NCBI GenBank assembly: GCA_025774405.1
Contig: JALGWB010000001.1
Span: 16,609 to 80,608, forward strand
Origin: a bacterium
GTDB taxonomy: Bacteria > Arandabacterota > Arandabacteria > Arandabacterales > Arandabacteraceae
Reading direction: 5' to 3'
DNA: 64,000 bases
Shown here in pieces: positions 31,718 through 58,536 of the stretch. Position numbers and translations under genes: made by a program. The notes beneath the pieces are model-generated. The model did not search any database. It was not told the origin of the DNA and saw only the letters and a program-made list of their open reading frames with translations. Each line of letters begins with the position of its first letter. Position 1 is the stretch's first letter.

Positions 31718-31779
31718 TAACTTAGCCCCACTAGAACCTAGACCCACTAGAGAATGTTTGATAACTTTGAGGAGGGAAA

Positions 31780-38703: not shown

Positions 38704-38729
38704 CCTTAGATACTTAGGGGTCCCCAACT

Positions 38730-39206
38730 ATGATTTTAGATGCAGGATCAGGCATGGCATCGAACCCAAGAGCCAACATACTCATGGACAAATATCTTCA
38801 AGGAGACAGTACCTCTCGTATAACGGGCACTCTTATGATTCGCAAAGGACAGACTATGATTTGTGGTGACCTTGAGGCCATGCCATTTCTGGATAAGTCC
38901 TTCGACATTGTTATTTGCTCTCAGACGCTCGAACATGTTGATAATCCTGAGAAAGCCTGTGCTGAGTTGGTGCGGGTAGGAAGGAGTGGTTTCATAACTG
39001 CGCCAAACGAGACAGTAGAAAGGCGTCGATATGAGCGTCGCGAGAAGCTCTATCACAAGTGGCTTATCAAGCAACGGGGCACTCACCTCGACTTCTATCT
39101 CAGAAGTCTCGTTCCAAGCCTCCCGATGATGGAGCATCCTAGCCAGGGCGTGGATATGGCTTGGAAAGGGAGCTTCACTTGGTCAGTGTTCAGAGAATCG
39201 CCATGA
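38730..39206 (+). CDS. class I SAM-dependent methyltransferase (Methyltransf_11-like)
   Basis: LEAMPFLDKSFDIVICSQTLEHVDNPEKACAEL post-motif II/III block. Confidence 0.6.
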   Translation: MILDAGSGMASNPRANILMDKYLQGDSTSRITGTLMIRKGQTMICGDLEAMPFLDKSFDIVICSQTLEHVDNPEKACAELVRVGRSGFITAPNETVERRRYERREKLYHKWLIKQRGTHLDFYLRSLVPSLPMMEHPSQGVDMAWKGSFTWSVFRESP

Positions 39207-40195: not shown

Positions 40196-40865
40196 ACAAT
40201 ACCGTAGGGACTTCGCCACGTACATGAGCCTTCCTGGAGCTGAGAGGTGTAGACTCCAAATGTATCCTCGTCTTGAGGATAAGACCGCATCAACTCCCCT
40301 GGATGCCTATTACTTTCGACAAGATACCTGGGCGTTCAAGCGGATAGTAGACCTCAAGCCTAGCAGCATAGTAGATGTAGGATCGACTGCGCTCCTCGTG
40401 GGAATTCTTGCCCAGATGTTTCCTACAACGAGTATCGATATAAGGCCCATTCCAGTATCTCTTCCTGGATTAACATGTAGGCAAGGCTCGATCACTAATC
40501 TCCCCTTCAAAGACGCCTCAGTTGAGCTCCTGAGCAGCCTATGTGTGATAGAGCATATAGGTCTAGGTCGATACGGCGACAAGCTCGATCCGCTCGGTAG
40601 CATCAAAGCCTGCAAGGAGATCTCGAGGGTGCTCAAGCCTGGTGGACATTTCATAATGAGCACTCAAGTGAGTCATACCCCTGCCCTCTGCTTCAATGCG
40701 CACCGAATCTTCACGCAGGCCCAAGTTCTGGATATGTTGCCAGCCTTCTCGGTAACGGATGAGGCGTTCTTCTTCCCTCGGCCTGGCAATGCAGAAGACA
40801 TAGAGGCACTCACGGGTTTCAGGTTCTGCTTCTGGTGCGTAGACTTGGTTAAGGAGTCAGCATGA
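40182..40865 (+). CDS. SAM-dependent methyltransferase (DUF268-like)
   Basis: VDVGSTALLVGILAQ (motif I-like) ... LKPGGHFIMST. Confidence 0.55.
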   Translation: MTAVEQYRRDFATYMSLPGAERCRLQMYPRLEDKTASTPLDAYYFRQDTWAFKRIVDLKPSSIVDVGSTALLVGILAQMFPTTSIDIRPIPVSLPGLTCRQGSITNLPFKDASVELLSSLCVIEHIGLGRYGDKLDPLGSIKACKEISRVLKPGGHFIMSTQVSHTPALCFNAHRIFTQAQVLDMLPAFSVTDEAFFFPRPGNAEDIEALTGFRFCFWCVDLVKESA

Positions 40866-41665
40866 CGCTCTCGGTTGTAACTCCTAGCTACATTAACAAC
40901 CAGCAACGAGCTGATTGGGCCAGAGACTCTCTGGCTTCCCTCAGGGAAACTATCGGCGACGGCTACTTACATGTTGTGGTGCTTGACAAATCCCTTGAAT
41001 GGAATATTATTGCTCAGGCAATCTATAACCAGCCTAATGTAATGCTCATGCAGCGTCCCAAGCCTCTTGGCAATACTTCAGCTTTGCTAAAGGCCGTGAA
41101 GGAATCTCGCAAGTTGGGAGCAGATCTCTGTTTTGTCCATATGGACGATAACATCTATGTCCCCGAATTCGGACCTCTTCTCAGATATGCCCAGGACGCT
41201 TTCAGCAACGATAGGGAGTTGCAAGAAGTGCTCTTTGTTGGCTACCCGATCCTTATAAAGAGGCATAGCAAACCACTTCTTGGCAATCGCACAGGCCTAA
41301 CTATCGAGGAGAATCAAGTCTCTTTCGATACCATACAGTTGCACCCTACTCGCTGTACGGATTATACTCTCTGGTGGTCTTATTTTCATGACCGAATGGT
41401 GGACGGGCGATTTTGGGCAGTTGTCATGTGGATGGCTCTCTACCGAGCTGAGTTCTTGGAGAGTGTCCTTACACTTGCCCCTACGGGCCGGACGCTTGGT
41501 CAGGTTGAATCTTACTACAGAAACAGAAGCAACTGGGAGAGACTATCCCATCGCTTTCCAGGAAAGCTCGGTTACATAAACATGCAGTTCGGCGGTTTGG
41601 AGATGCACCATCATAGTCAGGAATGGTGTGAGATGATCCGTTTTCCTAATACGCCTGTGAGGTGA
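40862..41665 (+). CDS. GT-A-like glycosyltransferase (DxD HMDDN)
   Basis: LSVVTPSYINNQQR...VHMDDNIYVP layout resembles GT-A enzymes. Confidence 0.45.
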   Translation: MTLSVVTPSYINNQQRADWARDSLASLRETIGDGYLHVVVLDKSLEWNIIAQAIYNQPNVMLMQRPKPLGNTSALLKAVKESRKLGADLCFVHMDDNIYVPEFGPLLRYAQDAFSNDRELQEVLFVGYPILIKRHSKPLLGNRTGLTIEENQVSFDTIQLHPTRCTDYTLWWSYFHDRMVDGRFWAVVMWMALYRAEFLESVLTLAPTGRTLGQVESYYRNRSNWERLSHRFPGKLGYINMQFGGLEMHHHSQEWCEMIRFPNTPVR

Positions 41666-41701
41666 GACATATAGGAGAAGACTTACCTGTGAGGTGAAGG
41701 A

Positions 41702-42340
41702 ATGACTTACAGAGAGAATCCAGAACTAGGTCAGGACATGGTTAAGTTTGCCTTTCATCGTTGGCAGCAAGGAGAATATCTCTTAGAGCCTCCTCAGCGT
41801 CAAATCTACGAGAATATTGCGGTCAGAGCGAAAGGCAAGACGGTCTGTGATATAGGCTCTGGAGCGGGACTGGGAACTACTATCCTAGCACAAAGGGCTC
41901 AGTCAGTTATTGGCATCGAGAAGGTTGCGTCTTCCGTCAGGTTCTCTAGGAAATGTCATCCCCTAACAAATGTGCAGTTTCTGAATGAGGATATAGGGAA
42001 GTGCTCTCTTTCTGACAACAGTTTCGATGTAGTGGTGGCGGTTGAGGTGATAGAGCATATCGCAAACTACCAGGCAGCACTGGATCAGATGGCTCGAATT
42101 CTGAAAGAGTCTGGAACCCTATACATCTCGTCTCCTAACAGGAATCAAGATATTAGAGGAGGAGCGTCAGGCGCAGGCCCGCCAAGGAACAAGTATCATG
42201 TTCGAGAGTGGACAGCCGAGGAGTTTCGGCATATTCTTCTCTCGCGCTTCAGTCAGGTTAGGCTTTCTGACTATACCCTTGACCCTTGCCTAGACTCCTG
42301 TACGCGAGTCTCGCCAGTTATCGCGATCTGTCGAATATGA
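41702..42340 (+). CDS. class I SAM-dependent methyltransferase
   Basis: Motif I VCDIGSGAGLGT, then FDVVVAVEVIEHIANYQAAL...LKESGTLYISSPN. Confidence 0.7.
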   Translation: MTYRENPELGQDMVKFAFHRWQQGEYLLEPPQRQIYENIAVRAKGKTVCDIGSGAGLGTTILAQRAQSVIGIEKVASSVRFSRKCHPLTNVQFLNEDIGKCSLSDNSFDVVVAVEVIEHIANYQAALDQMARILKESGTLYISSPNRNQDIRGGASGAGPPRNKYHVREWTAEEFRHILLSRFSQVRLSDYTLDPCLDSCTRVSPVIAICRI

Positions 42341-43005
42341 GAACTCTGTGGATCGTTATTCCAGCAAAAGATGAGGCTGCTACTATTGCAGACCTAGTTG
42401 CCGAAGCCGCCCACTACGGAACGGTGTTAGTAGTTACCAGTGGGCCTTCAGACGATACTGGCCCAAGAGCTGCCAGCGCGGGAGCCCAGGTAATCTACAA
42501 CGGCCAGAGCATTGCAGGAAAGATAGTCACTGGCTGGCAGAGAGCCCTCGACAACAATGCGACACGAGTCATAGTCATGGATGCAGGCGGATCGCATAGG
42601 CCATCAGATATCCCCCGTCTCCTGGCAGCAGAGGCTGACATCGTAATAGGCAGTCGGTTTGTGGCTGGAGGCCAATATCATGGCAGATCGTGGCGCAGGG
42701 TATGCAGTCAAGTCATGGCTCTGCTCTGCAACCTAGCCCAACCAGGTAAACAGGTCCATGACTGGTCTAGCGGCTTCAGGTGTTATTCGGTAGAAGCAAT
42801 TGGGCAGCTACTAGCCGTCCATTATAAATCTGATATGCACGCTTGGCAAATCGAGGTGCTAGGCTGGGCTAGGCGCTTGCACCTTTCAGTTGAGGAAGTC
42901 CCTATACAGTATACTGCTGGGCACTCGTCTCTCTCCTGGGATGGGGCTCTCAGGGCTCTCAATATATTGTTAGACATCTTGCTCCGCAGGTGGGTAGTCG
43001 GATGA
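42286..43005 (+). CDS. family-2 glycosyltransferase, DPM1/GtrB-like (polyprenyl-phosphate sugar transferase type)
   Basis: LWIVIPAKDEAATI...VVTSGPSDDTG...RVIVMDAGGSHRPSDIPRLL...DIVIGSRF. Confidence 0.7.
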   Translation: MPRLLYASLASYRDLSNMRTLWIVIPAKDEAATIADLVAEAAHYGTVLVVTSGPSDDTGPRAASAGAQVIYNGQSIAGKIVTGWQRALDNNATRVIVMDAGGSHRPSDIPRLLAAEADIVIGSRFVAGGQYHGRSWRRVCSQVMALLCNLAQPGKQVHDWSSGFRCYSVEAIGQLLAVHYKSDMHAWQIEVLGWARRLHLSVEEVPIQYTAGHSSLSWDGALRALNILLDILLRRWVVG

Positions 43006-44075
43006 TATTCTACCTTGATACATACATTACTGACGAGCCTCTCCATCCTGCGTTTGTTTGGCCAAACAGGGAGATCAGGAACTCCTGTCCCCAGTATAAG
43101 ATGCCACGGAGAATAGATATCACAAAGTACACGCTTGCGAGTTATAAGATGATTCCGTGGACACATGTTGTCATCGCATACGATGTTGCTGATAAGGATG
43201 ATGAAAGCACGTTCCTGGACTTTGTGCAAGAAGTTTTCCCAGACGCAGATGTTAGTCGGCCTCGCTCCTCTAACCAGAAGACGTACAGGGCAAGAGTGGA
43301 GCAAGTTTGCAGTTTTGAGGATGACTTCATCTTTTATGCACCTAACAACGATCATCCCCTCATAGCAAGCAATCTCAATCACCTGCCCAAGTTACTCAAA
43401 AAGGCTTCAAGGTTCTCACAAAACTACCCATTTGTCTCCGTTGTCTACTCGCACTTCAGTGAGTTCGTCAACGCGCCTGTCGTTGGGAGTCCTTTCTACA
43501 GACAGTTCTCTAGCGACTCACGCATAGTAGAAGACGACGAGATTGCTACGAGCTTTGTGAGATTCAATGGCGACAACTCTTCTATCCAGATCGTCAATAG
43601 GAATCTCCTGCAACACTGGTTTTGCTCACATGATCTCGGTGATGCCAGAATCATCAGAGCAGAAGATGTTCGCAGGTTTCTTCCAACTCCTAACCAGTTG
43701 ATGATAGTGCCCAAGAAGGAGCTCTGTGCGCACTTTGACGGCTACTCGCATACAACTGGTATCACTAAGATCAGTCCTGACCAGATTCCTCCTCTATTCA
43801 TTCCAACAGGGTTCTTCGACAGCTCGATTCGGATCGCCTACGGATATCCAGAATACCGAGATGGCTGGGTAAACATAAACCCTTCTGCGAGGGATTTCAG
43901 TTTCCGCGACCGAAAGACGGGCACAGATCTGAAAATTGGTCTTCAGGACATACCTCTTTTCTGGAAGAGCAGAATCGCAGAAATAGACATCAATGTGAAT
44001 GCCGACCTCGAGCGAATTAAGGAGGGCAGAGAGAAATACTTTGAGACAGTTCGTAACCCCTGGAGGAAAGCCTAG
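42990..44075 (+). CDS. hypothetical protein inside the glycosylation cluster
   Basis: 361-aa ORF, no motif recognised. Confidence 0.45.
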   Translation: MGSRMIFYLDTYITDEPLHPAFVWPNREIRNSCPQYKMPRRIDITKYTLASYKMIPWTHVVIAYDVADKDDESTFLDFVQEVFPDADVSRPRSSNQKTYRARVEQVCSFEDDFIFYAPNNDHPLIASNLNHLPKLLKKASRFSQNYPFVSVVYSHFSEFVNAPVVGSPFYRQFSSDSRIVEDDEIATSFVRFNGDNSSIQIVNRNLLQHWFCSHDLGDARIIRAEDVRRFLPTPNQLMIVPKKELCAHFDGYSHTTGITKISPDQIPPLFIPTGFFDSSIRIAYGYPEYRDGWVNINPSARDFSFRDRKTGTDLKIGLQDIPLFWKSRIAEIDINVNADLERIKEGREKYFETVRNPWRKA

Positions 44076-44650
44076 TGATCAAGTTGCATATAGGCTGTGG
44101 CCCCAGAGTGCTAAAGGGATGGATAAATATCGATCTCAAGTTCACTCCTTACCAGGCGTACCTGAAATACTACACTGACAAGTACTACCCAGAGTCCGCT
44201 AGGGGCGACAAGTCAGATTTTCTTGCACTAGATGTGTCTAGGCAGCCTTTGCCCTTTCCTGACAATTCGGTAGATGTCGTCTTCCATGAGGACTTCCTTG
44301 AGCACCTGAACCAGCGTAGCCAAGTTCTCTTCCTAGCTGATTCTCTCCGAGTCTTGAAGCCAGACTCCATTCATCGAATTGATACGCCTAACCTGTTAGC
44401 ATCGATGCGCGATCACTCTAATTTCTCCCTTGGCTTTCAGGGTGTCTATGTCCATGAGTGGGATAAGTCCAAGCATCTCAATGTATTGACCCCTAGCTCG
44501 CTTGAAGAGATGGCTCTTATGGTTGGATATTCAACAGTAGTCTTCACAGGTAGAAACCAAAGTGCGTCGCCTCTGATTCCGCCTGAGTATCGCCCTGATC
44601 CAAGAGATCGGCCCGAGAACGGAAACATCTTTGCAGATTTGGTTGCTTAG
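44075..44650 (+). CDS. SAM-dependent methyltransferase
   Basis: HIGCGPRVLKGWINID (motif I) ... LRVLKPDSIHRIDTPN. Confidence 0.55.
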   Translation: MIKLHIGCGPRVLKGWINIDLKFTPYQAYLKYYTDKYYPESARGDKSDFLALDVSRQPLPFPDNSVDVVFHEDFLEHLNQRSQVLFLADSLRVLKPDSIHRIDTPNLLASMRDHSNFSLGFQGVYVHEWDKSKHLNVLTPSSLEEMALMVGYSTVVFTGRNQSASPLIPPEYRPDPRDRPENGNIFADLVA

Positions 44651-45539
44651 GAGTAGCGCCTTGAGGATATTTGTTCTTCCTGTGTCGTCTCAGTTTCAAC
44701 CTCCTCCCATGAAGATTCTCTATCCTCCTCACAACAAGCGAGACTACGGCATTGAGCAAGACTTCGCTCAGCATCTCACAGAGCCTTCTAGTGACTGGAC
44801 GATCGCAGAGTCTTCTGACGTTGCTGATTGGCATTACCTTCCTATCTACTGGACACGTTACCATGTGACACATAACTATGCCAAGACTGGCCTAGAAGCA
44901 CTTCAGCGTGAAGTTGCCCGAAGAATCATTGACGACAAAAGGACCTTTACAATTTGCCAGTATGATGATGGGCCTTTGGTAGACCTTGGTAGAACTGTGC
45001 AGTTTCTAGGGTCTCGCAAAGGGGAAGAAGGCATCGACGTCCCTCTTCTTTCCTATCCTCATAAGCTCCCTGCAGTTGATCCCCCTAAACAGTGGTTAGC
45101 GTCTTTTGCAGGGAGACTCCGAACGCACGAGGTTCGCGCAGACATGCAGCGTGTTCTGGGGCCTCGCCAGGACATTGACATTCAGGACACACGCAAAACC
45201 AGTAGATTCTTTGTAGACTTGATCCTTCGGTCGTATGTTTCCCTCTGTCCCAGGGGATGGGGTGGCTCGTCTTTTAGGTTTTATGAATCTATGCAACTGG
45301 GAGTAGTGCCCCTTCTCATTGGCAGCATAGACACCCGCCCCTTCAAACGTTTCCTGAACTGGAGTATAATGAGTCTCTATGCTCGCACGGCCGAGGAAGC
45401 AAATGTGTCCCTCGACTCCCACACTCTGACAGAATTGCTAGAGATGGGGCGATGTGCCAAGAAAGCCTGGCATCAAGATCTATCGTTTGGGCACTGGCAC
45501 AAGTATGTGTTTCAGGAATTGGAGGCTCTATGGCATTAA
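44631..45539 (+). CDS. exostosin-like (GT47-type) glycosyltransferase
   Basis: SLCPRGWGGSSFRFYESMQLGVVPLLIG closely matches the exostosin C-terminal catalytic block. Confidence 0.6.
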   Translation: MQIWLLRSSALRIFVLPVSSQFQPPPMKILYPPHNKRDYGIEQDFAQHLTEPSSDWTIAESSDVADWHYLPIYWTRYHVTHNYAKTGLEALQREVARRIIDDKRTFTICQYDDGPLVDLGRTVQFLGSRKGEEGIDVPLLSYPHKLPAVDPPKQWLASFAGRLRTHEVRADMQRVLGPRQDIDIQDTRKTSRFFVDLILRSYVSLCPRGWGGSSFRFYESMQLGVVPLLIGSIDTRPFKRFLNWSIMSLYARTAEEANVSLDSHTLTELLEMGRCAKKAWHQDLSFGHWHKYVFQELEALWH

Positions 45540-46984
45540 AGCACCATCAGCACTCTCTACAGGCCGAGGCGGTATGGGGGAAAGCCTACGGCGTGTTTGA
45601 TCGAATTGTTCAGTTGAGAGGTTTCAGGACTGGCGTCGAGGTTGGCGTTGCTTTTGGAGGGCACATAGAAGCACTTCTCAACATCCCCACTATTGAGAAG
45701 GTCTATGGAGTTGATCCCTATCAGCAAACAGGAACTAGCAGCTCCTTGGGCCTCTCGCAGTCTGAGATGGATACCCTCTATCTCTTCGTTCTGAACAGAC
45801 TTGCCCCGTTTGGCGATCGTTACCAGCCTGTACGAAAAAGCTCGGTAGAGGCATCGTCTATCATCCCGCAGGAGATTGATTTCGTCTACATAGACGCTGA
45901 CCATTCCTACCAGGAAGTTATGGCGGATCTCTGTGCTTGGTTTCCCAAAGTACGCGAAGGCGGGATAATTGGCGGCCATGACTATTCTCATCCTGACTTG
46001 CCAGGAGTTAAGAAAGCCGTGGATAGATTCTTCAGTCGGTTTGCTCAGCGCGTTCACTCACTAGGCGAATATGTCTGGTGGATAGAGAAGAAGATGCCCA
46101 GCATCAGCTTCGTATTGCCTGCATACAACTGCGCTGAGTTCGTCGAGGAGTCTGTGAAGTCTATTCAGAAGGGGAACTTTGAAGATGGCGACGAGCTCAT
46201 CATTGTTGACGATGGCTCATCTGACAATACCCTGATGATTTTGCAGAGACTGGCCGCGTACTATCCCTCAATAAGGCTTCTCAAACACGACAGTAATAGG
46301 GGCGCATCAGCAGCCAGGAATACAGCGATAGCCAGTGCCAAGAACTCCCTACTCTTCAACCTAGACTCAGATAATATCCTAGTGCCAGGCAGCATCCCCA
46401 AACTCAAAACATATTTGATTAGCTCCAATGCTGATATAGCAGTGTTCGAGGAGACGCGTTTCTTTAGAAACGGAACTGGCCAGATAACACACAGCTGGAA
46501 GTATGGCCCAGGTCTGTTGACTCTATCCGACTGCTTGGCTGGCCAAATAACTCCTGGGGCTAGTGGGAACTATATGTTCACTAAGGAGTCCTGGGCCAAA
46601 GCTGAAGGTTACCCTGAGTTCGCAAAGACCTATGAAACCTGGGGATTCGCCTTCAGGCAGCTAGCCACAGGCTCCAAAATGATGGCAATGCCCGACTCTT
46701 TCTATCTCCATAGGTATGGCCATTCGTCACTCTGGGTGCGAGAAGGAGGAAATCGGAACGCTTCTCGGAAAACTCTAAAGATGATTCTGCCCTTTCTTGG
46801 CCTGCTTGACTACAAGGACGTTGAATACATAATGAGCCACAAGGAGACCTGGCTTACTAACTTATCTCAGCACCCAATACGAGTCAAGGGGAGCGCTCCT
46901 GGGAATTCGGGCAGCATCAAACTCCAGAGCCCTCCACTTGACTATATGGAGCTTTTGTGTCAGAATATAGACGAGGAGACATAA
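45530..46984 (+). CDS. bifunctional TylF/MycF-like O-methyltransferase (N-terminus) and GT2 glycosyltransferase (C-terminus)
   Basis: N-terminus GVEVGVAFGG...FVYIDADHSYQEVMADL...GGIIGGHDY (Methyltransf_24 pattern); C-terminus SISFVLPAYNCAEF...LIIVDDGSSDNT...NRGASAARN. Start set to the internal Met MALKHHQ. Confidence 0.65.
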   Translation: MALKHHQHSLQAEAVWGKAYGVFDRIVQLRGFRTGVEVGVAFGGHIEALLNIPTIEKVYGVDPYQQTGTSSSLGLSQSEMDTLYLFVLNRLAPFGDRYQPVRKSSVEASSIIPQEIDFVYIDADHSYQEVMADLCAWFPKVREGGIIGGHDYSHPDLPGVKKAVDRFFSRFAQRVHSLGEYVWWIEKKMPSISFVLPAYNCAEFVEESVKSIQKGNFEDGDELIIVDDGSSDNTLMILQRLAAYYPSIRLLKHDSNRGASAARNTAIASAKNSLLFNLDSDNILVPGSIPKLKTYLISSNADIAVFEETRFFRNGTGQITHSWKYGPGLLTLSDCLAGQITPGASGNYMFTKESWAKAEGYPEFAKTYETWGFAFRQLATGSKMMAMPDSFYLHRYGHSSLWVREGGNRNASRKTLKMILPFLGLLDYKDVEYIMSHKETWLTNLSQHPIRVKGSAPGNSGSIKLQSPPLDYMELLCQNIDEET

Positions 46985-47571
46985 TGATTGACTACAAGAC
47001 AACCGCTGGTTTCTCCCTGACACTTGAGGAGCGTGAGTTCCTCAAAGACTCTGCTGAGGGCTCTGGCTCCATTGTCAGTATCGAGTCTGGCCCCTGCGCT
47101 GCGCTATGGTGCTTCAGGGCAGGCGCGCCTGAGTCTTCCATCTACAGCGTGAAGGAGCAAGGATCGATCATAGATGGTGATCCAGGAGTAACTATCCTTA
47201 GTGGCTTTTCTGACTTCCCTGGAAACTCTGTAGACCTGCTCTTCATAGATGGCTCACATGCTTTCAAGGATGTTCTACTCGACTTAGTTACTTGGCAAGA
47301 TAGCATCCCGCTGAAAGGCTTAGTGGTCCTTCACGACTATGAGCACAACAATATGCCTGAAGTTAAGCTGGCTACTGAGTTCTGGCTCAAGAACGTCACC
47401 AGGAAAACCTGGCAGCCGATTGAGGCTCCTGGCTCTCTCTTTGCCCTCAGGCGTATTGCTCGTGGGAGGAAGCCAGCTGTTGTCCCCGTAGAGGCCCTCA
47501 AGGAACAGCACGCTGAGCAAGAGAGCGTATCAGAGAAGGCAACCGGCCAAGTGGACCCTAGACAGGACTGA
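46984..47571 (+). CDS. TylF/MycF-like (Methyltransf_24) SAM-dependent O-methyltransferase
   Basis: LLFIDGSHAFKDVLLDLVTWQDSIPLKGLVVLHDY; TAATG stop/start overlap with the upstream gene. Confidence 0.6.
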   Translation: MIDYKTTAGFSLTLEEREFLKDSAEGSGSIVSIESGPCAALWCFRAGAPESSIYSVKEQGSIIDGDPGVTILSGFSDFPGNSVDLLFIDGSHAFKDVLLDLVTWQDSIPLKGLVVLHDYEHNNMPEVKLATEFWLKNVTRKTWQPIEAPGSLFALRRIARGRKPAVVPVEALKEQHAEQESVSEKATGQVDPRQD

Positions 47572-52005: not shown

Positions 52006-52224
52006 ATGGCCTTAGATTCCTTCCTAGGACTTGACAAGCGCAGCATAACCGGTTATAATGAAGATAACAAAGCTCATCCCATAGTGCGGGCCTGGATTAG
52101 CCAACTAATTCAGTCTAAAGAGCTAGCCCTGGTCCTAGACAGGTATGAGTTTCGGCGTATCGATGTGACGCTCTCAGCTAGTGGAGGTAAGGCGGTACTC
52201 AAACCGACGATCTCGTTTCGCTAA
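52006..52224 (+). CDS. hypothetical small protein
   Basis: 72-aa ORF between the protease-like domain and the capsid gene. Confidence 0.3.
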   Translation: MALDSFLGLDKRSITGYNEDNKAHPIVRAWISQLIQSKELALVLDRYEFRRIDVTLSASGGKAVLKPTISFR

Positions 52225-52313: not shown

Positions 52314-54992
52314 ATGGGTTTCACATTAAAGGTGAAAGGTTGGATTGAGGACTTCGTGAAGGCGGCTGAGGCGTCCAAAGAGGAGATTCCCAAGGCGGCC
52401 CAGGGTAGCTTCACTCGCCTGAAACTACTCTCGGCCCAGAAGCCTGTCAAGGATGTGGAGTCTAGCCGCAACTCCGAGGGTCTGGAGAAGCTTCAGGCAT
52501 TCCTGAAGAGTGTGAAGGGCAAAGCCAAGTTGGAGACTGTTGCCAAGAAAGCCATTGACAACCTGACCGAATACTTTGGGAAGGACTATGGGGCAAAAGG
52601 GGAGGTCGCAAAAGCTTCCACTTATGTCTGCCCAAAGTGCGGCTACAAGGGCAAGCCTGACAAAGACGGCAACTGTCCCAAGTGTGGCACTAAGATGAAG
52701 GTGGATTACGGGAAAGCCTACGGCGACTACGGCAAGACCAAGTATGAGGATTATGGCAAGACCGAAGTTGCCAAATCTGAGCCCCATCCCCACGGCAAGC
52801 ATGTCGTCTATTGCCCTAAATGTGGCTATGAGGAGACAGTCGAGGCTGGCGTCAAGGCTAAGGACAAGAAGTGTCCCAAGTGCGGAACTCGGATGCGGGC
52901 TAGGGAAATAGGTGAGCGGCGCGAGGCTGTCCACTTCAGGACCCTAACTGGCCGACTTCTTGAAGCTGTTGAAGGCACAGAGGGTAGCCAGTGGGAAGTC
53001 ACTCTCATCGAGGCAGGCGTCTCTGAGAATCGCACCAAGTACAGTCTCCCTGTTCTTGAAAAAGCGCTTCCCCTCTTCGATGGTGCTAAGTGCTTCGCTG
53101 ACCATTCAACTGCCTCTGAGCGTCGCGAGCGCCCTGGACGCTCTATCAGAGACATCGTAGGCTGGTTTGAAAGCCCGAAAGTTCTCGGCGACGGAGTCAA
53201 AGGAATTGGGGCTGTCTTCAACATCCTAGAATCAGAACGATGGTTTCGAGATAAAGTCGTAGAGGCCTGGGAGCGAGGCAAACGAGACCTCATTGGCTTC
53301 TCGATCAGCGCCATCGGCAGACAGAAACTGATTCGCGAGGAGGACAAACTCCTCAAGGAAGTCGTTTCGATTGACAAAGTACAATCTGTAGATGCTGTCA
53401 CTGAGCCTGCAGCTGGTGGCAAATTCGTGAAAATGCTAGAAGGGAAGGAGGCAGAAGAAGTGAGCCAACTAGATATTCTGAACACCATCACACTGGAGAA
53501 TCTGAGAGAGGTGAGGCCAGACTTGTTCCCTGAGCCTGCTTCTGAGCCAGAGCCTGATTTGGAGCCTACGCCTGAGCCAGAGACTGAACCATCTCCTGAT
53601 CTTTCTCACCTCACTGAGGCGGTCAAAGAGATCGAGAGCCTAAAGGCTACCCTGGCTGAAATGCAGGATACGTCTCGGAAGACGGATCTCAAGGCGCAGC
53701 TTGACTCGGCGCTTCAGTCCAGCGGTCTTCCCAAGCCTGTCCAGGATAAACTTGGGCGACGCTTCTCTTCTCTCGAATTCACCTCGGAGACTCTCACTGA
53801 GGCGATTCGCGAGGAGAAGGAAGTCTTAGCCCAAATTCTGCCACCAGAGCGTCGTTACTTCCCATCAATCAAGATGGGCGAGAGCGAGCGGGACAAGATT
53901 GACAAGGCTATGGATGGTCTCCTGGAGGGCGAAGATATCGACGGGATTCCTCGCTTCAGGAATCTGCGTGAAGCCTACTCGATAGTCACTGGTACACCGA
54001 TTCTGGATGTCAGAGCTCAGCATATCCTGAATGCGTCGTCAGCCTTTGACTCGTCAGTTGGTTTCTTGCGAGAGGAGATATCGACAAGCACTTGGACGAA
54101 CGTCTTCGGAACCAGCATGACCAGGAGACTGCTTAAGGAATACCGCAAACCTGGCTATGATGACTGGAAGAAGATTTGCTCCAGCGTCGAGACTCTCGAC
54201 AACATGAAGTCCCAGGAGCGAGTCCGCATAGGTGGCTATGTTGCCCTCAGCTCGGTTTCCGAGGGAAGCACCTACACAGAGCAGTCGTATGATCCTCCAA
54301 ATGAGATGCAGAACTACACCCCGACCAAAAAGGGTAACTTGGAGAGTATCACACTGAAAGCTATCGCCAACGACGACCTTGGTGCTCTACGGCGAATTCC
54401 CAAGGCTATGGCCTTTGCAGCCAAGGTGGGTGTCTACAAGGCAGTTTTCGACGTTCTGACCACGAACGCTGCAATGAACTATGATTCAGTGGCTCTGTTC
54501 AACGCGGCCAGTCACGGGAACTATGGGACAACTGCTCTTAGCTATGAAGAGCTCACAAGTGCCAAGAATGCTATGCTGGAGCAGATGGAGCCAGTAGGGT
54601 CTGGTGGAACTGAGCTCACCTATCTGGACGTGGAGCCCAAGTACTTGCTGGTTCCACTAGAGCTCCGAGGCACAGCCTGGGACCTCATCAATTCGCCAGT
54701 TAGGGCACTTGCCAGTTCCTTCAACGCAACTCAGCCCAACATGCACTATAAGACGCTTGAGCTGATTGTAGTGAGGCACTGGACTGATTCTAACAACTGG
54801 TACTTGATCGCAGACCCTTCATTGATTGCAACCATCGAGGTTGGTTTCTATGGTTCTCAGGAGCCCGAAATCTTTACCGAGTTGGCCAATGCTGGGTCGA
54901 ATTTCACTGCTGATAAGCTCCGCTACAAGATTCGTCATATCTATGGGGTAGCAGCTCTTGAGCATCGTGGAATGTACGCCGAGATCGTGTGA
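52314..54992 (+). CDS. scaffold-domain / major capsid protein fusion (892 aa) with two zinc ribbons and a Pro/Glu-rich linker
   Basis: Strong RBS AAGGGAGG; N-terminal about 400 aa is Lys/Glu-rich coiled-coil-like with CPKCGYKGKPDKDGNCPKCG and CPKCGYEET..CPKCG; linker PEPASEPEPDLEPTPEPETEPSP; C-terminal about 450 aa has the composition and position of an HK97-fold capsid protein. Confidence 0.6.
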   Translation: MGFTLKVKGWIEDFVKAAEASKEEIPKAAQGSFTRLKLLSAQKPVKDVESSRNSEGLEKLQAFLKSVKGKAKLETVAKKAIDNLTEYFGKDYGAKGEVAKASTYVCPKCGYKGKPDKDGNCPKCGTKMKVDYGKAYGDYGKTKYEDYGKTEVAKSEPHPHGKHVVYCPKCGYEETVEAGVKAKDKKCPKCGTRMRAREIGERREAVHFRTLTGRLLEAVEGTEGSQWEVTLIEAGVSENRTKYSLPVLEKALPLFDGAKCFADHSTASERRERPGRSIRDIVGWFESPKVLGDGVKGIGAVFNILESERWFRDKVVEAWERGKRDLIGFSISAIGRQKLIREEDKLLKEVVSIDKVQSVDAVTEPAAGGKFVKMLEGKEAEEVSQLDILNTITLENLREVRPDLFPEPASEPEPDLEPTPEPETEPSPDLSHLTEAVKEIESLKATLAEMQDTSRKTDLKAQLDSALQSSGLPKPVQDKLGRRFSSLEFTSETLTEAIREEKEVLAQILPPERRYFPSIKMGESERDKIDKAMDGLLEGEDIDGIPRFRNLREAYSIVTGTPILDVRAQHILNASSAFDSSVGFLREEISTSTWTNVFGTSMTRRLLKEYRKPGYDDWKKICSSVETLDNMKSQERVRIGGYVALSSVSEGSTYTEQSYDPPNEMQNYTPTKKGNLESITLKAIANDDLGALRRIPKAMAFAAKVGVYKAVFDVLTTNAAMNYDSVALFNAASHGNYGTTALSYEELTSAKNAMLEQMEPVGSGGTELTYLDVEPKYLLVPLELRGTAWDLINSPVRALASSFNATQPNMHYKTLELIVVRHWTDSNNWYLIADPSLIATIEVGFYGSQEPEIFTELANAGSNFTADKLRYKIRHIYGVAALEHRGMYAEIV

Positions 54993-55068: not shown

Positions 55069-55767
55069 TTGACAAAGTATCTGAGCTCCTACGTTGATGC
55101 TGTGCGTAATCGGCTTCAGGAGGTTGAGGCCAGTGAGGAAATCAGCACTACTGAGATCAACGACTCCATAGAGCTCGCCGTGCGGTATCACAGTCGTTTC
55201 AGGCCACAGATCATCGTAGACGATATCGCAGGCTCTGGAGTCTATGACCTCACTCTGCCTGACACTTGGGAAAAGGACTTCTCGGTTATCCTGGCTGTGG
55301 AGTGTCCTCAGGGCAGCAGGACGCCCACTTACCTTGAGCCCAAGGATTGGATGCTTTATCGGGGTACAAGCGGCAATCCTTCCTTAAGGCTCCTCAGCTT
55401 CACTCCGAGCGCCAGCCAGACTGTACGTATAACCTTTACCCATACTCATTTAGTAACTGCCTCTACTACTACCATCCAGGATGAGGATTACTGGGCTGTG
55501 GGTAACTTAGCTGCCTCGATGGCAGCTCGCCTGCTTGCTGCCCGCTACGCTCGCGTGTGGGGGCCAGTTCTTAATGTAGATGTTGTGAACTATCCTAACA
55601 AATCGGAACAGTATCTAGCTTTGGCCAAGGAATGTGAGAATATCTGGAGGCTCCATCTTGGGCTTCCTCCTGAGGGAGCGCCTAGCCCCTCGTTCCAATA
55701 TGGGGACTGGGATATGACATATTCTTGGAATAGAGGGCTTCTGGTTCACAAGCCTGAATATAGATAA
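55069..55767 (+). CDS. hypothetical head-tail module protein
   Basis: 232-aa ORF after the capsid gene. Confidence 0.45.
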   Translation: MTKYLSSYVDAVRNRLQEVEASEEISTTEINDSIELAVRYHSRFRPQIIVDDIAGSGVYDLTLPDTWEKDFSVILAVECPQGSRTPTYLEPKDWMLYRGTSGNPSLRLLSFTPSASQTVRITFTHTHLVTASTTTIQDEDYWAVGNLAASMAARLLAARYARVWGPVLNVDVVNYPNKSEQYLALAKECENIWRLHLGLPPEGAPSPSFQYGDWDMTYSWNRGLLVHKPEYR

Positions 55768-55779
55768 TGGCTGAGGATA

Positions 55780-56268
55780 ATGGCTTCCACCCGTAAGCAG
55801 ATTTCAACTGCCATCAAAGGCATTCTAGAAACCGTCAGTGGTGTAGGGGTAGTTCAGGAGTATCACCGCTATACCCGCTCCCCTGAAGGGTTCAAAGAGT
55901 ACTTTACTAAGTTGGTAGATCAGTACTCACGGGAAGCCAATGCTTGGCTAGTCTGCCGAGACAGCTTCTCACAGACCACGGCAGGAATGCCGATTCCTCA
56001 GGAGATGCGAGAGCATCAGTGGACTATTGTGGGCTATGTCGGGCTGAAAGATTCAACAGGTTCTGAGGAGACGTTCCAGGACTTGGTCGATGAAATCGTG
56101 AACGCTTTTGAGGCTCGCAAGCAGTTAGGGCTTCCTACCATAGTCGAATATGTCAGGCCGCCCCAGGTTCCAACAATCGACCACGCCTGGTTTGGGCCAG
56201 TTCTATGTCATCATTGTGTGATTCAGTTGGCAGTTCTCGAAAGGCGTACTATAGTATATGCGTCCTAG
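55780..56268 (+). CDS. hypothetical head-tail module protein
   Basis: 162-aa ORF. Confidence 0.45.
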   Translation: MASTRKQISTAIKGILETVSGVGVVQEYHRYTRSPEGFKEYFTKLVDQYSREANAWLVCRDSFSQTTAGMPIPQEMREHQWTIVGYVGLKDSTGSEETFQDLVDEIVNAFEARKQLGLPTIVEYVRPPQVPTIDHAWFGPVLCHHCVIQLAVLERRTIVYAS

Positions 56269-56323
56269 CAAGCAACGAATTGGTGTATCCTAAGTAAGTG
56301 GTGGCCCTAGTTGAGGATAAGCA

Positions 56324-57487
56324 ATGGCCCGCTATGGGAGAGTTCTTCAGTCCAGACGTCAGCAACCTTTAAGGGTGATAGCTCCTTGCTATGAACTAGC
56401 AGCTAGTGGCTATTATCGGGTTCTGCTACCGCTCAAGGTCTTGCTCGACAGGGGGGCTATCGAGGCAGTTTGGAAGGGGATGTTACCCTGCAAGCCAGGG
56501 GAGAAGCCTGAGCGCGGCTCTCGACTTGCTAATTTGATGGCTCAACTCCTCAATTGGGCTAACGTCTACTTCCTAGAGAGAGAGGAACGAGAGAACCTTA
56601 TTCCCATACTTGAGAAAGCCAAACGACTCGGCAAGGCTATCGTGATGGACATAGATGACCATGTAGTTGCCTTTCCTGATATTCCTCAAAGGCAGGTATC
56701 GGATTTTTGGAAGGAGCGAGTGCCCTATTTCCTGAAGATCCTCCAGCAGGTTGATTTGTTGATTACCACTACCGACAGACTAGCAAGGAGTTATAAGGAG
56801 TACCTGGGCGATGGTGCCGAGACAGTTAGTATTCCAAACTTCATCGATACGAGGCATCCTCGCTGGCAAGTTCAGCCTAGCGAAAAGACTGACGGGACAA
56901 TCACTATTGGCTGGATGGGCGGCCCGACTCACATAGATGATCTGGAACTCCTCCGAGAGCCGCTCTCTATTATTCTGAACCGATACCCCAAGGCTGTCTT
57001 CAAGTGTGTAGGGCTGATTCCAGAGTGGTTGGACAGTTTGCCTTCCGGCCAGGTCGTCAGGAGTGAGGGCTATTCTGGCCTTGCTGACTATCCAAAGCGC
57101 TTCGCAGATTTCGATATAGGACTTATCCCACTCACTGACAATGAGTTCAATCGGAAGGGTAAATCAGCGTTAAAGTATCTCGAATATTCGATGTTCGGAA
57201 TTGCCTCAGTTGTCAGCAAAGTGCCCGCTTATTGGGGAGCGGTTAGCAGGAAGCGAGGCTTTCTAACGCCCAATACGACCGAAGATTGGATCAAGTCCAT
57301 AGAAACACTTATCACCAGGGAAGCCCTTCGCAAATCCCTGGGCAATGCGGCCAAAGACTATGTTCTCAAGCAGCGTTCTATCGATGGCAACGCCTATCGT
57401 TGGGCTGCTGCCTTTGAGCAAGCTCGTCGAATCAGACGGAGCCGGAATCAAATCCTAGTGCCTGCACTAGAAGGAGTAGCAATATGA
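56324..57487 (+). CDS. GT1-family (GT-B, Glycos_transf_1) glycosyltransferase
   Basis: ITIGWMGGPTHIDD... and the C-terminal block KGKSALKYLEYSMFGIASVVSKVP typical of retaining GT4-type enzymes. Confidence 0.6.
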   Translation: MARYGRVLQSRRQQPLRVIAPCYELAASGYYRVLLPLKVLLDRGAIEAVWKGMLPCKPGEKPERGSRLANLMAQLLNWANVYFLEREERENLIPILEKAKRLGKAIVMDIDDHVVAFPDIPQRQVSDFWKERVPYFLKILQQVDLLITTTDRLARSYKEYLGDGAETVSIPNFIDTRHPRWQVQPSEKTDGTITIGWMGGPTHIDDLELLREPLSIILNRYPKAVFKCVGLIPEWLDSLPSGQVVRSEGYSGLADYPKRFADFDIGLIPLTDNEFNRKGKSALKYLEYSMFGIASVVSKVPAYWGAVSRKRGFLTPNTTEDWIKSIETLITREALRKSLGNAAKDYVLKQRSIDGNAYRWAAAFEQARRIRRSRNQILVPALEGVAI

Positions 57488-58440
57488 CCATATCACGATT
57501 GACCAAGATTGGTGTTGCGCGCGAAAGCTCCTGGGGAGCCGCTGATGCTCCACAGGTACTTCTGCCTGTCGAGCCGCCTAGTATAACAGAGCCTTATGAG
57601 CAGATTCTGGACAATCTACAGCGTGGCCTCTATGCTGCGGACTTCGGCGCATATCAGGGCGCAGGCCATGTGGAAATGTCGCTTTCTGGGCAATTCTACC
57701 CAGAGGAAGTGGGCTTTCTACTTACAGCTATGATAGGCTCACCCTCTAGCGGTACGAGTGTACCCTATGAGCATGACTTCACCATGGCGACTTCTCAGCC
57801 GCCTAGTCTCGCTATCCAGGACGAAGGCGCTGTCTATAAATCAGGGGCCACCAAGCGACGCTACACAGGGATGCTGCCATCTAGCCTCGTTTTCAGCTTT
57901 AGCTCAGCTGAGGGAGTGCTTGCCTGGTCTGCTGACCTAACAGGCAAACTAGGAACTGCGCCAGGCAGCGGAGCTATCCCTAGTGCTGTAGGTACGTCTC
58001 CCTTCCTTGGCTGGCAAGGAGCCCTCACTATTGGGAGTGCTAACACTCGCCTCATTGACGCTGAGATTACTCTTGAGCGAGAGGTTGAGATGCGGCATGG
58101 CTCAGACGGAACTCAGTATGCAGTCGCGGGTTACTCTGGAGCCTTAACTGCCACAGCCACCATGACACTTGATGCAATAGACAACACAGAGCTTGACTAC
58201 GTTCTTGGTCACTCTTCCAACACAGTTGTGCTCACTTTCTCCTATGGAGCTGGCAATGCTGAGCGTAGCATCGCCTTCACTATGACTAAATTCAACTGGG
58301 GGGAGGCACCAGCAGAACTAGACCGCAGCGGGGTCTTCGTCACTTTGGGAATCAGCGGCAGAGCTCTCTACAATGATACGGATGCTGGGCCTATCGCAGT
58401 TACGCTCAAAAACGCTAGGTCTAGTTACGCAGCTGCCTGA
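57484..58440 (+). CDS. putative major tail (tube) protein
   Basis: 318-aa ORF upstream of chaperone/tape-measure genes; start overlaps the previous stop. Confidence 0.45.
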   Translation: MTISRLTKIGVARESSWGAADAPQVLLPVEPPSITEPYEQILDNLQRGLYAADFGAYQGAGHVEMSLSGQFYPEEVGFLLTAMIGSPSSGTSVPYEHDFTMATSQPPSLAIQDEGAVYKSGATKRRYTGMLPSSLVFSFSSAEGVLAWSADLTGKLGTAPGSGAIPSAVGTSPFLGWQGALTIGSANTRLIDAEITLEREVEMRHGSDGTQYAVAGYSGALTATATMTLDAIDNTELDYVLGHSSNTVVLTFSYGAGNAERSIAFTMTKFNWGEAPAELDRSGVFVTLGISGRALYNDTDAGPIAVTLKNARSSYAAA

Positions 58441-58536
58441 TAAGGGAGTATGGGCTGTCAGCGATGTCCTTGCCTCTCTTTCAGTTCACTTGACATCTTG
58501 GCTCGTTTCTGCTAGAATAAGAAGCAGGAGGTTAGG

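Follow-up and report, generated by a model that had tools for sequence, protein, structure and literature searches.

A conserved GT-B glycosyltransferase gene in the tail module of an uncultivated siphovirus, with the tail tube as a candidate acceptor

Organisation of the locus

We analysed a stretch of 64,000 nucleotides (hereafter the window), which covers all but about 23 kb of the roughly 87-kb genome of a siphovirus-type phage. This phage is uncultivated, comes from metagenomes and is without a close relative among sequenced isolates; a search for near-identical DNA among sequenced phages gave no match. The gene considered here, at 56324..57487, starts with ATG and encodes a glycosyltransferase (GT) of 387 aa, as judged from its open reading frame, Pfam and PHROG matches and an AF2 model. 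It lies on the + strand, as do all the features described below. The frame is a real gene, as an earlier reading of the DNA made without database searches (the sequence-only reading) had it, and the next frame (57484..58440), the tail-tube gene, starts within its stop codon. The resulting ATGA overlap (57484..57487) is directly legible in the sequence. It had led to the two genes being called translationally coupled: the overlap is real and would be compatible with coupling, but the tube ATG has a strong Shine-Dalgarno sequence of its own, GAAGGAG (57470..57476), within the 3' end of the GT gene and 7 nt before the tube start. The GT start codon itself is preceded, at a distance of 6 nt, by a Shine-Dalgarno-like GAGGA (56313..56317). 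A consensus scan also gave a sigma-70-like promoter match (TTGGCA-17-TATAGT, 10/12) at 56227..56255, about 70 nt before the GT start. Such sites showed no clear enrichment over shuffled sequences in the scan, and the site is absent from relatives, where the preceding gene abuts the GT gene; being neither conserved nor statistically compelling, it was set aside.

Upstream of the GT gene lie a 162-aa gene (55780..56268) in the position of a tail terminator or connector, a 232-aa gene (55069..55767) in the position of a head-tail connector and, before them, the major capsid protein (MCP) gene (52314..54992), which encodes an 892-aa zinc-ribbon/protease/scaffold/HK97 fusion (PF25209 at residues 586-888; phrog_4523, phrog_15531). 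The description of the two small genes as putative head-tail connector genes goes by position and synteny; the synteny of the 232-aa gene is conserved, and the 162-aa protein has homologues in seven related loci (L001-L003, L021, L015, L016 and L019). It finds no echo in family or structure: neither protein was matched by Pfam, PHROG or a PDB profile, hhalign linked neither to annotated adaptor or Neck1 proteins, and a single-sequence AF2 model, with a pLDDT of 38 only, gave no lead either.

The downstream gene encodes a major tail (tube) protein of 318 aa, an identification secured by PF18906 (Phage_tube_2; E 4e-21, with 76 bits where the cut-off is 27). The protein has 507 homologues in the representative library and shares 34% identity with a Thermoanaerobacterium phage THSA-485A protein and 26% with the 'major tail protein' of Arthrobacter phage Mufasa8. 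It is followed by genes of 204, 156 and 232 aa, and then by a long open frame that runs from 60370 to the window end; at the matching position, the homologous locus L001 encodes a 1573-aa protein with a weak TMP_3 match. A tube gene, genes in the chaperone position and a frame in the tape-measure position, with no sheath gene, make this a siphovirus tail module.

The main cluster of GT and methyltransferase (MT) genes, at 36753..47571, ends 8.75 kb upstream, and the GT gene is indeed set apart from it. By Pfam, the cluster comprises four GT2-type genes, one Glyco_trans_1_2 gene, one GT47-like gene, SAM methyltransferases (six or more, counted as genes or domains) and genes without an assignment; the products are all soluble. 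We considered the GT gene as a recent paralogue of the Glyco_trans_1_2 (GT-B-like) member of the cluster, and rejected this, as no similarity between them was found.

Fold and family of the product

Scored as a whole protein against the curated gathering thresholds of Pfam, the GT stands barely above the cut-off for Glyco_trans_1_2 (PF13524; 25.3 bits against 25) and under those for Glyco_trans_1_4 (PF13692; 24.2 against 27) and Glycos_transf_1 (PF00534; 18.5 against 26.4). Its homologues in a large database are annotated as PF13692 or PF13524, and PHROG 7162, 'glycosyltransferase', is matched with an E value of 4.3e-31 (residues 27-355 of the protein on positions 13-296 of the 309-position profile). 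The AF2 model (pLDDT 92.1, pTM 0.89) has alternating beta-alpha elements in two halves, in a GT-B fold. Foldseek retrieved 367 PDB matches for this model at E<=1e-3, the best 50 of which are all GT-B enzymes, headed by the GT4 enzymes GlgM, PglA, BshA, MshA and PimA at E values of about 1e-15 to 1e-12. Sequence comparison with the PDB required a family profile, since a phmmer search with the single sequence gave no match; the profile matched GT4 structures at their C-terminal domains with an E value of 2e-16. The same five enzymes, with PimB' and TarM, top both the Foldseek and the PDB profile listings.

The identity of the product as a GT-B glycosyltransferase is thus borne out by the model, by PHROG 7162 and by the PDB profile, and the profile search for GT motifs that the sequence-only reading had proposed left its claim standing. 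Its label 'GT1-family' is appropriate in the Pfam sense of Glycos_transf_1, but not in that of CAZy: no GT1 enzyme was recognised among the best 50 Foldseek matches or the 60 listed PDB profile matches, and the nearest characterised enzymes belong to CAZy GT4. A search for transmembrane segments in the GT found none. We are confident that the product is, as modelled, a soluble, GT4-like glycosyltransferase of the GT-B fold, and it is presumably active as an enzyme.

The likeness to GT4 enzymes (BshA 3mbo/2jjm, MshA 3c4q, PimA 2gej, PglA 8dvw, GlgM 6tvp), retaining enzymes which act on small molecules or lipid-linked acceptors, lies in the two-Rossmann-domain fold (TM 0.6-0.68; Foldseek E values down to 8e-15); identity to the window GT is only 11-16%, and two motifs set the latter apart. 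The first is a family signature in the nucleotide-sugar-binding C-domain, G279-K-S-A-L-K-Y-L-E-Y288 (codons 57158..57187; alignments A1 and A6), in which K280, S281 and K284 are invariant in A1; G279 and E287 join them in the close-family alignment A6. At this place GT4 enzymes have their E-x7-E motif. The alignment to the BshA ...ESFGLVLLEAMA region requires an insertion of 5 residues, which bears the invariant K-S of G-K-S (E274...G279-K280-S281...E287 in the window GT against E-S-F-G-L-V-L-L-E in BshA). The motif is altered from its canonical GT4 form: the first Glu is E, D or P in close relatives, and the second, E287, is kept in the close family. The other motif, M108-D-I-D-D-H113 (codons 56645..56662), lies in the N-domain at the end of a beta strand (E105-110 in the AF2 model). 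Alignments A1, A6 and A10 all show its D111 and D112 without variation; the two residues may take part in catalysis or acceptor binding.

Further evidence on the signature comes from L021, whose orthologue is 31% identical and occupies the same gene position. It is interrupted by a LAGLIDADG intein exactly at GK|S (junctions ...NRLGK|CLTGD...ISHN|SDLKYLEY). An intein inserted at this invariant point suggests selection to keep the spliced GT product.

Conservation of the gene in the tail module

In L001, L002 and L003-5 the genes follow each other as in the window (MCP, 232 aa, 162 aa, GT, tube), with the GT and tube genes overlapping (by 4 bp in L001 and L002, by 8 bp in L003) and with the Shine-Dalgarno sequence of the tube gene preserved as AAGGAGG or AAGGAG at unchanged spacing. 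Identity to the window GT is 62% in L001 and 46% in L003, as against 64% and 51% for the MCP and 67% and 57% for the tube protein. GT identity tracks that of the structural proteins, which indicates that the gene evolves at the structural-gene rate. The GT-tube pair is retained in relatives down to this 46% and also in L021, so that the linkage is a stable one.

The accessory genes behave differently. The upstream cluster is partly kept in L012 and replaced by a different gene set in L003, and the accessory clusters vary in content, with a DegT aminotransferase and an acetyltransferase in L001, and radical-SAM/SPASM and other GT2 proteins in L003. The GT is the sole glycosylation gene common to the window phage and to the L001/L012 and L003 lineages. 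Following the GT gene and the upstream cluster together across relatives, as had been proposed, therefore showed the former kept and the accessory GT/MT genes reshuffled.

The GT is not a constant companion of this type of tube. Seven phages with homologous tubes are without it (L015, L016, L019, L023, L029, L030 and THSA-485A); in GT-less relatives the homologue of the 162-aa gene directly precedes the tube gene or is separated from it by no more than about 0.3 kb. In L022, a different glycosylation cluster stands immediately upstream of the homologous tube gene. Conversely, GT homologues occur in other settings: between capsid and adaptor genes in the unrelated phage L036 (order MCP, GT, adaptor), next to the adaptor gene in the structural module of the SU10-like phage L006, and in non-structural regions in phAPEC8 and Atuin. 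Profile searches of viral contigs added only L036 to the phages already found. Among genome contigs, the GT profile retrieved only a 27% identical relative in a Verrucomicrobiia MAG and the tube profile gave no match; in metagenomes, the tube profile found 7 loci only, mostly short. Judged by these sequence comparisons, the GT is a vertically inherited gene of the tail module and not a recent addition.

The tail tube as a candidate acceptor

The sequence-only reading had suggested, from the position of the gene, that the tail tube is itself glycosylated. The position of the GT gene in structural modules argues for a late, virion-linked role. It does not point to the tube as acceptor in particular, since homologues also adjoin capsid and adaptor genes, the SU10-like L006 included, and adjacency, as L036, L006, phAPEC8 and Atuin illustrate, is by itself not specific.

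The one hint that concerns the tube protein specifically is a Ser/Thr-rich strand at residues 133-141 (SSLVFSFSS; codons 57880..57906), a hypothetical acceptor patch. All 8 GT-linked tubes have 4-6 Ser/Thr there, and 8 GT-less tubes have 0-3; nowhere else along the protein do the two groups differ as much. The sample, in which gene context was known for 17 tubes, is small and phylogenetically confounded, with about three independent lineages. Position 134 is Ser in the GT-linked tubes and Glu, Gln or Ala in the GT-less ones. As a clean marker of GT presence Ser134 had to be downgraded, because Ser occupies this column in 31% of 178 family members, counted irrespective of gene context. Apart from this internal strand, no Ser/Thr-rich insertion or C-terminal extension specific to GT-linked tubes was found. 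The strand that tracks the GT is thus a weak hint in favour of the tube. The MCP is an alternative candidate.

Comparison with known glycosylation systems

A precedent for the glycosylation of tail tubes by phage enzymes is provided by mycobacteriophages Che8, Corndog and Myrna, whose own GTs, according to the summaries of Freeman et al. (2023, Cell Host Microbe) in PMC12363180 and PMC12619734, glycosylate capsid and tail-tube subunits. In these accounts, virion glycosylation by phage enzymes is demonstrated so far for a small number of mycobacteriophages only, and there it influences recognition by antibodies (PMC12363180, PMC12619734). The members listed are Che8 gp108-110, Corndog gp38 and Myrna. 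As in the window phage, phage GTs and methyltransferase domains are proposed to decorate a long-tailed virion in the cytoplasm; in the mycobacteriophages tail-tube subunits are a documented acceptor, and Che8 gp108 combines GT2 with Methyltransf_24/TylF, Pfam domain types also present in the upstream cluster of the window. In the mycobacteriophages glycosylation is demonstrated by experiment, whereas in the window phage it is deduced from the genes. The enzymes also differ. Che8 gp108-110 are of the GT-A type (GT2+Methyltransf_24, GT2 and GT25) and are encoded at the right genome end; the window GT is a GT-B enzyme of the tail module, without detectable similarity to them. Homology was rejected (hhalign probability of 0.4% against gp108), and a BLAST comparison of the 510-aa MT24-GT2 protein of the window with Che8 gp108 was not significant.

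The window phage has soluble, cytoplasmic enzymes without export or oligosaccharyltransferase machinery, which we take to be the defining trait of the mycobacteriophage system. Of 32 + strand proteins examined between 27773 and 60373, none showed a convincing transmembrane helix, and domain searches of the window found no flippase, oligosaccharyltransferase or ABC exporter (Wzx, Wzy, PglB, PglL, ABC domains). Likewise, no enzyme that forms 5hmC or 5hmU (thymidylate-synthase-like hydroxymethylase, TET/JBP-like 5mYOX) was matched by Pfam or PHROG among the scanned proteins of the 64-kb window, a search that a divergent 5mYOX may escape, and none was seen beside the GT in L003 and L021. Glycosylation of the virion in the cytoplasm fits these negative results for membrane, export and 5hmC/5hmU-making genes.

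The phages of PHROG 7162, a family filed under 'moron, auxiliary metabolic gene and host takeover', provide a looser comparison. Escherichia phage phAPEC8 gp074, Streptomyces phage KimJongPhill gp6 and Arthrobacter phage Atuin gp165 are 23-29% identical to the GT by tblastn, and KimJongPhill gp6 adjoins packaging and structural genes, together with a methyltransferase and a UDP-glucose dehydrogenase; none of the three, however, overlaps a tail-tube gene, and none is characterised.

Proposed role and alternatives

The GT probably serves a virion-glycosylation system, as one of its conserved enzymes. As a presumed late gene of the tail-morphogenesis module, it would be expressed together with the tube protein and would transfer a sugar, supplied by a nucleotide-sugar donor, in the cytoplasm of the infected cell. 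This step would probably be protein-proximal (priming or early) and the conserved one of a phage-encoded pathway, with the lineage-variable upstream GT/MT cluster building the remainder of a methylated glycan. The idea, raised earlier as an alternative, that the GT adds a priming sugar extended by the upstream cluster accords with its being the sole conserved glycosylation gene amid varying accessory genes. The leading candidate for the acceptor would be the tube. Taken as a whole, the explanation of a cytoplasmic GT-B enzyme that performs the conserved step of such a pathway, with the tube as leading candidate acceptor, is the one we favour, tentatively and at slightly less than even odds. 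Counted against it are the unrelated GT-A fold of the validated mycobacteriophage GTs and the seven phages that manage related tubes without the GT. The same holds for the role of its cellular relatives as polysaccharide enzymes and for the likeness of DNA-glycosylating GT-B enzymes to the same PDB entries, BshA and MshA.

One might speculate further that the GT is a protein-priming O-glycosyltransferase which recognises the tube at residues 133-141, with Ser134 as candidate site, and starts a large methylated glycan; a rapidly exchanged accessory cluster would diversify its composition, tails and perhaps heads would be coated in a lineage-specific manner by enzymes without kinship to the mycobacteriophage GT-A system, and the L021 intein would mark the GT as indispensable. 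In this detailed form we regard the scheme as unlikely.

The enzyme could belong to a virion-glycosylation pathway and yet modify the capsid or another virion protein, or extend the glycan, its adjacency to the tube gene reflecting nothing but the layout of the late operon. The homologues beside capsid and adaptor genes in L036, and beside the adaptor gene in L006, would suit this, as would the lack of a Ser/Thr-rich insertion or extension specific to GT-linked tubes and the mycobacteriophage glycans, which published summaries place on capsid as well as tail-tube subunits. Yet the overlap with the tube gene is kept over large divergence, and the Ser/Thr-rich strand covaries with GT presence. 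Moreover, the GT alone among the glycosylation genes is conserved with the structural proteins, as expected of an enzyme that recognises a conserved protein and not a variable glycan. We regard this reading as unlikely.

The cellular relatives of the GT raise another question, that of a host envelope glycan as substrate. The closest (L008 and L007) are polysaccharide enzymes in ABC-transporter-type O-antigen and dTDP-rhamnose clusters. L008 is a methyltransferase-GT fusion of Dechloromonas beside Wzm/Wzt and Rml genes. In bacterial fusions of this kind (Dechloromonas sp. HYN0024 protein P0070) the GT domain is 23-30% identical to the window GT and has the D-D and K-S..K motifs in common with it; they differ in an N-terminal SAM-methyltransferase domain, in the neighbouring Wzm/Wzt exporters and rml genes, and in an acceptor that is presumably a lipid-linked polysaccharide. 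The top structural neighbours, too, include the enzymes PglA and PimA, which use lipid-linked acceptors. During infection, and by way of carriers and exporters of the host, the GT might accordingly modify an O-antigen, teichoic acid, S-layer glycan or exopolysaccharide precursor; a block on superinfection or easier release would be examples of the benefit. We hold this to be quite improbable: no flippase, polymerase, ligase or membrane protein was found encoded in the window, the gene forms part of a tail-morphogenesis operon, shares its last bases with the tube gene and keeps pace in evolution with structural genes, and unrelated phages, too, carry family relatives in their structural modules.

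A role in the glycosylation of phage DNA (sugar hypermodification of 5hmC or 5hmU, directed against restriction) is very unlikely. It is suggested by the GT-B enzymes of DNA-hypermodifying phages, whose predicted folds resemble BshA and MshA as the window GT does and whose clusters sometimes lie near structural genes (Pyle et al., bioRxiv 10.1101/2023.12.21.572611), and by C5-cytosine methyltransferases encoded among, or next to, the structural genes and the GT in L003 and L021. The DNA-hypermodification clusters, however, need a 5mYOX or thymidylate-synthase-like enzyme encoded close by (bioRxiv 10.1101/2023.12.21.572611). The GT resembles their enzymes, and the T4 alpha- and beta-glucosyltransferases, in being GT-B, but searches of the 64-kb window, and of the genes next to the GT in L003 and L021, yielded neither a thymidylate-synthase-like hydroxymethylase nor a TET/JBP (5mYOX) homologue. 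Moreover, the many GTs and small-molecule or sugar-type SAM methyltransferases of the cluster would suit a complex glycan better than a DNA adduct.

That the GT is a mobile accessory gene (moron) without a virion role, or a decaying gene, as its patchy distribution, with seven tube-homologous phages lacking it, and its PHROG category might imply, is hardly credible, given that its composition is that of the surrounding region, that no terminator of its own was found, that it overlaps the tube gene, that its motifs are intact down to 31% identity and that the intein at an invariant motif in L021 implies selection for the spliced product.

Implications

On present evidence, the GT is a well-supported annotation with a candidate acceptor and not a new kind of system. 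One conserved GT of the tail module combined with a swappable GT/MT cluster makes a concrete model that can be tested. If the function suggested by the context is true, virion glycosylation would reach uncultivated environmental siphoviruses, and would do so through an unrelated enzyme fold.

Identity of the glycosyltransferase and its overlap with the tail-tube gene

In the mechanical ORF list, the glycosyltransferase gene (56324..57487, + strand, ATG start, 387 aa) is followed by an ORF of 318 aa, also starting at ATG (57484..58440, + strand). The junction reads GAAGGAGTAGCAATATGACC, so that the ATGA at 57484-57487 is common to the stop codon (TGA) of the first gene and the start codon (ATG) of the second, confirming the overlap claimed in the sequence-only reading. 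That reading's assignment of the second gene to the tail tube was borne out by a match to the Pfam family Phage_tube_2 (PF18906; 76 bits, cut-off 27, E = 4e-21). Among the homologues of the tube are one annotated as a major tail protein, from Arthrobacter phage Mufasa8, and a protein from Thermoanaerobacterium phage THSA-485A.

The glycosyltransferase itself is a borderline match to Pfam Glyco_trans_1_2 (25.3 bits, cut-off 25), two sister families falling below their cut-offs. The check proposed earlier, a profile search for GT1-type motifs, did return glycosyltransferases: PHROG 7162 ("glycosyltransferase") matched with E = 4e-31, and a profile of 41 family sequences matched GT4 structures in the PDB (B. 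anthracis BshA, MshA, TarM, PimA and others; best E = 2e-16). An AlphaFold2 model built on the same 41-sequence alignment (mean pLDDT 92.1, pTM 0.89) resembled in Foldseek the GT-B/GT4 enzymes GlgM, PglA, BshA, MshA, PimA/PimB' and glycogen synthase (TM 0.6-0.68), and uncultured tailed-phage "Glycosyl transferases group 1" proteins (TM 0.77-0.79). These approaches agree on a GT-B enzyme, of Glycos_transf_1 type in Pfam terms and apparently GT4-like in the CAZy scheme; the label "GT1-family" thus holds in the Pfam sense but not as CAZy GT1, the nearest structures being GT4. No hydrophobic segment was found in the protein.

Family alignments revealed two signatures, one with D111 and D112 invariant inside MDIDDH, the other with K280, S281 and K284 invariant inside F-N-x-x-G-K-S-x-L-K-Y-L-E-Y. 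The second sits where the GT4 E-x7-E motif belongs, with a five-residue insertion and a variable first Glu; the protein therefore shares fold and profile with GT4-like GT-B enzymes, but departs from them at E-x7-E. In a relative on a 106-kb JGI contig (3300078626; locus L021), whose tube is 39% identical, the position of the glycosyltransferase is held by an 832-aa gene (7285-9783), which BLAST and translation identify as an orthologue (31%) split by a LAGLIDADG intein of about 415 aa. Its insertion point is precisely the junction of the invariant Lys and Ser of GKS (...NRLGK/CLTGD...ISHN/SDLKYLEY, slashes marking the intein ends), and conceptual splicing yields a protein that aligns with the family along its full length. 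Inteins persist at conserved, functionally critical sites in genes indispensable to their host, so this insertion, which is new relative to the sequence-only reading, gives independent support that the GKS motif and the gene matter. An unrelated canonical GT4 gene in another phage locus, L022 (1314-3563), is also interrupted by an intein, which lies a short way before the E-x7-E motif (AEGFGLPVCE) of that enzyme. Among the papers listed by one literature search on this subject, none mentioned inteins in phage glycosyltransferase genes in its title or abstract.

Conservation of the glycosyltransferase and turnover of the upstream cluster

A search for near-identical DNA found no close relative among sequenced phages. 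The exact protein is encoded on metagenomic contigs some 87 kb long, and related proteins are 57-65% (P0002-P0007) or 45-46% (P0008-P0010) identical. Relatives with sufficiently long contigs retain the order major capsid protein, ~230 aa, ~163 aa, glycosyltransferase, tube, with an overlap of 4 or 8 bp and a strong Shine-Dalgarno sequence for the tube within the 3' end of the glycosyltransferase gene. In a BLAST comparison covering all late genes, identities to the window phage in two relatives (L001 and L003, respectively) were 62% and 46% for the glycosyltransferase, 64% and 51% for the capsid protein, 66% and 45% for the 232-aa protein, 72% and 53% for the 162-aa protein, and 67% and 57% for the tube, indicating that the glycosyltransferase evolves like the neighbouring structural proteins.

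The separate main cluster of glycosyltransferase and methyltransferase genes was found upstream as reported, at 36753-47571, and encodes four GT2-type proteins, one Glyco_trans_1_2 protein, one GT47/exostosin-like protein and at least six SAM-methyltransferase genes or domains. The L001 phage (its cluster read from L012) has about nine of these roughly 15 genes in common (eight at 47-74% identity, one at 31%), with a DegT aminotransferase and an acetyltransferase in place of the others. The cluster of the L003 phage is made up differently (GT2s, radical-SAM/SPASM, C5 DNA methylase, Glyco_trans_1_2), and its sole link to the window cluster is one weak GT2 match (27%). With the cluster thus reshuffled, the glycosyltransferase is the only glycosylation gene common to the three lineages. 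Its core status relative to a variable cluster is a further addition to what was first noticed.

The gene is absent from loci L015, L016, L019, L023, L029 and L030 and from isolate THSA-485A, though their tube and connector-position genes are homologous, and its distribution on a rough tube tree is patchy, so that it has been gained or lost more than once. L022 has another glycosylation cluster directly upstream of the tube (two epimerases, a radical-SAM/SPASM protein, two GT2s and, farther from the tube, the intein-bearing GT4). In L029 (5206-7164) Phage_tube_2 occurs as two paralogues side by side (334 and 312 aa), where other relatives have one tube gene.

Genomic setting

Four features separate the cluster from the glycosyltransferase: a 1343-aa fusion, an 892-aa capsid fusion, and 232-aa and 162-aa genes with no assigned family. 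The first (47919-51950), a head-module protein conserved in L001 (71%), fuses ATP-dependent DNA ligase, Dam-like N6-adenine methyltransferase and XkdF-type protease domains. The major capsid protein (52314-54992) is a protease-scaffold-capsid fusion, with three CPKCG-type zinc ribbons at about residues 100-200, a head-maturation-protease-like region (phrog_15531; residues 219-509), a Glu/Pro-rich linker and scaffold-like stretch, and an HK97-type capsid domain (PF25209; residues 586-888); zinc ribbons at the N-terminus of a capsid precursor are unusual. The large terminase (30857-33185) appears split into ATPase (30857-31717) and nuclease (32253-33185) ORFs around a 162-aa ORF of no known family (31780-32268), perhaps by an intron or homing-element insertion, and the two-part arrangement recurs in L012. 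A homing-endonuclease-like gene with HNH_3 and AP2 domains (27773-28513) marks the junction between leftward replication genes and rightward packaging and structural genes. Promoter matches upstream of the capsid gene (TTGACA-17-TATAAT, 12/12, 52031-52059) and in the gap downstream of the tube (11/12 with an extended -10 TG, 58490-58518) suggest that the host uses sigma-70-type promoters for late genes.

The tube gene is followed by a pair of small genes that overlap, then by one of 232 aa, and finally by a reading frame without a stop between 60370 and the window end; the L001 counterpart of this frame encodes 1573 aa and matches TMP_3 weakly. Because a sheath gene is missing, this arrangement corresponds to a long non-contractile tail. 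Next to the tube, where tail-assembly chaperones are usually encoded, is a 204-aa gene (58537-59524 region) with CxxC...CxxC zinc-ribbon motifs; it shares about 100 nt, in a different frame, with the following ORF (59054-59524). The gene in this place is MerR-like instead in L021, with the glycosyltransferase, and in L023, L029 and L030, without it. A minus-strand ORF of 474 aa (62565-63989) inside the open frame matching the tape-measure gene gave no matches in the family search, and is probably a shadow ORF.

The tube as a candidate acceptor

The position of the gene does not by itself identify the acceptor. In the unrelated phage L036, picked up when DNA was searched with a degenerate version of the family motif, a homologue (30%) lies between the major capsid and head-tail adaptor genes; in L006, with SU10-type portal, capsid and adaptor, one (25%) adjoins the adaptor gene, and SU10-type phages are short-tailed. 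More remote members occur in non-structural regions of phAPEC8 and Atuin; the copy in KimJongPhill directly precedes the terminase genes, with a methyltransferase and UDP-glucose dehydrogenase. What recurs is a place within virion modules rather than adjacency to the tube.

No Ser/Thr-rich insertion or tail was found in the tube. The largest Ser/Thr contrast along the protein is at residues 133-141 (SSLVFSFSS; 57880-57906), with 4-6 Ser/Thr in all eight tubes linked to the glycosyltransferase, seven of which form one clade, against 0-3 in eight tubes without it. Position 134 is Ser in every linked tube and in L022, and Glu, Gln or Ala in every tube without the gene; in a set of 178 family members of unknown gene context, however, 31% also have Ser in this column. 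This strand, which the sequence-only reading did not mention, is a suggestive candidate for a Ser/Thr acceptor site. The interpretation first offered is partly supported: virion-linked glycosylation is likely, but the tube as acceptor is plausible and unproven, adjacency not being tube-specific in L036 and L006.

Proposed role

Cytoplasmic virion glycosylation is the best-supported reading of the gene's role. It draws on the glycosylation gene products of the window, all soluble; on the failure to find any flippase, polymerase, oligosaccharyltransferase or ABC exporter in the window; on the location of the glycosylation genes within the morphogenesis operon, in the same orientation; and on mycobacteriophages, whose own enzymes are documented to glycosylate capsid and tail-tube subunits (PMC12363180, PMC12619734). 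The same absence of membrane machinery and operon setting argue against modification of a host envelope glycan by the enzyme, although its nearest cellular relatives come from O-antigen and rhamnose clusters. A role in DNA sugar hypermodification is somewhat less likely still. Like the present enzyme, the GT-B enzymes with which phages modify DNA resemble BshA/MshA, and their clusters are described near structural genes (bioRxiv 10.1101/2023.12.21.572611). Relatives have C5-cytosine DNA methyltransferase genes within glycosylation and structural gene blocks (L003:1041-2054, L021:5414-6367), where the window phage has Dam-like and N6/N4 methylases (47919-51950, 15826-17226). However, neither a 5mYOX/TET-JBP nor a thymidylate-synthase-like enzyme was detectable in the 64-kb window or beside the glycosyltransferase in L003 and L021, about 23 kb of the genome lying outside the window. 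That the gene is accessory, without a virion role, is argued against by its conservation and by the intein in the L021 orthologue.

We regard the gene as encoding a phage glycosyltransferase that likely serves virion glycosylation. In its proposed working it is closest to the mycobacteriophage virion-glycosylation system, yet homology does not place it there, since the GT-A enzymes Che8 gp108-110 show no similarity to it. The contrast between a core glycosyltransferase and a variable cluster suggests that this enzyme may carry out a conserved, protein-proximal glycosylation step.
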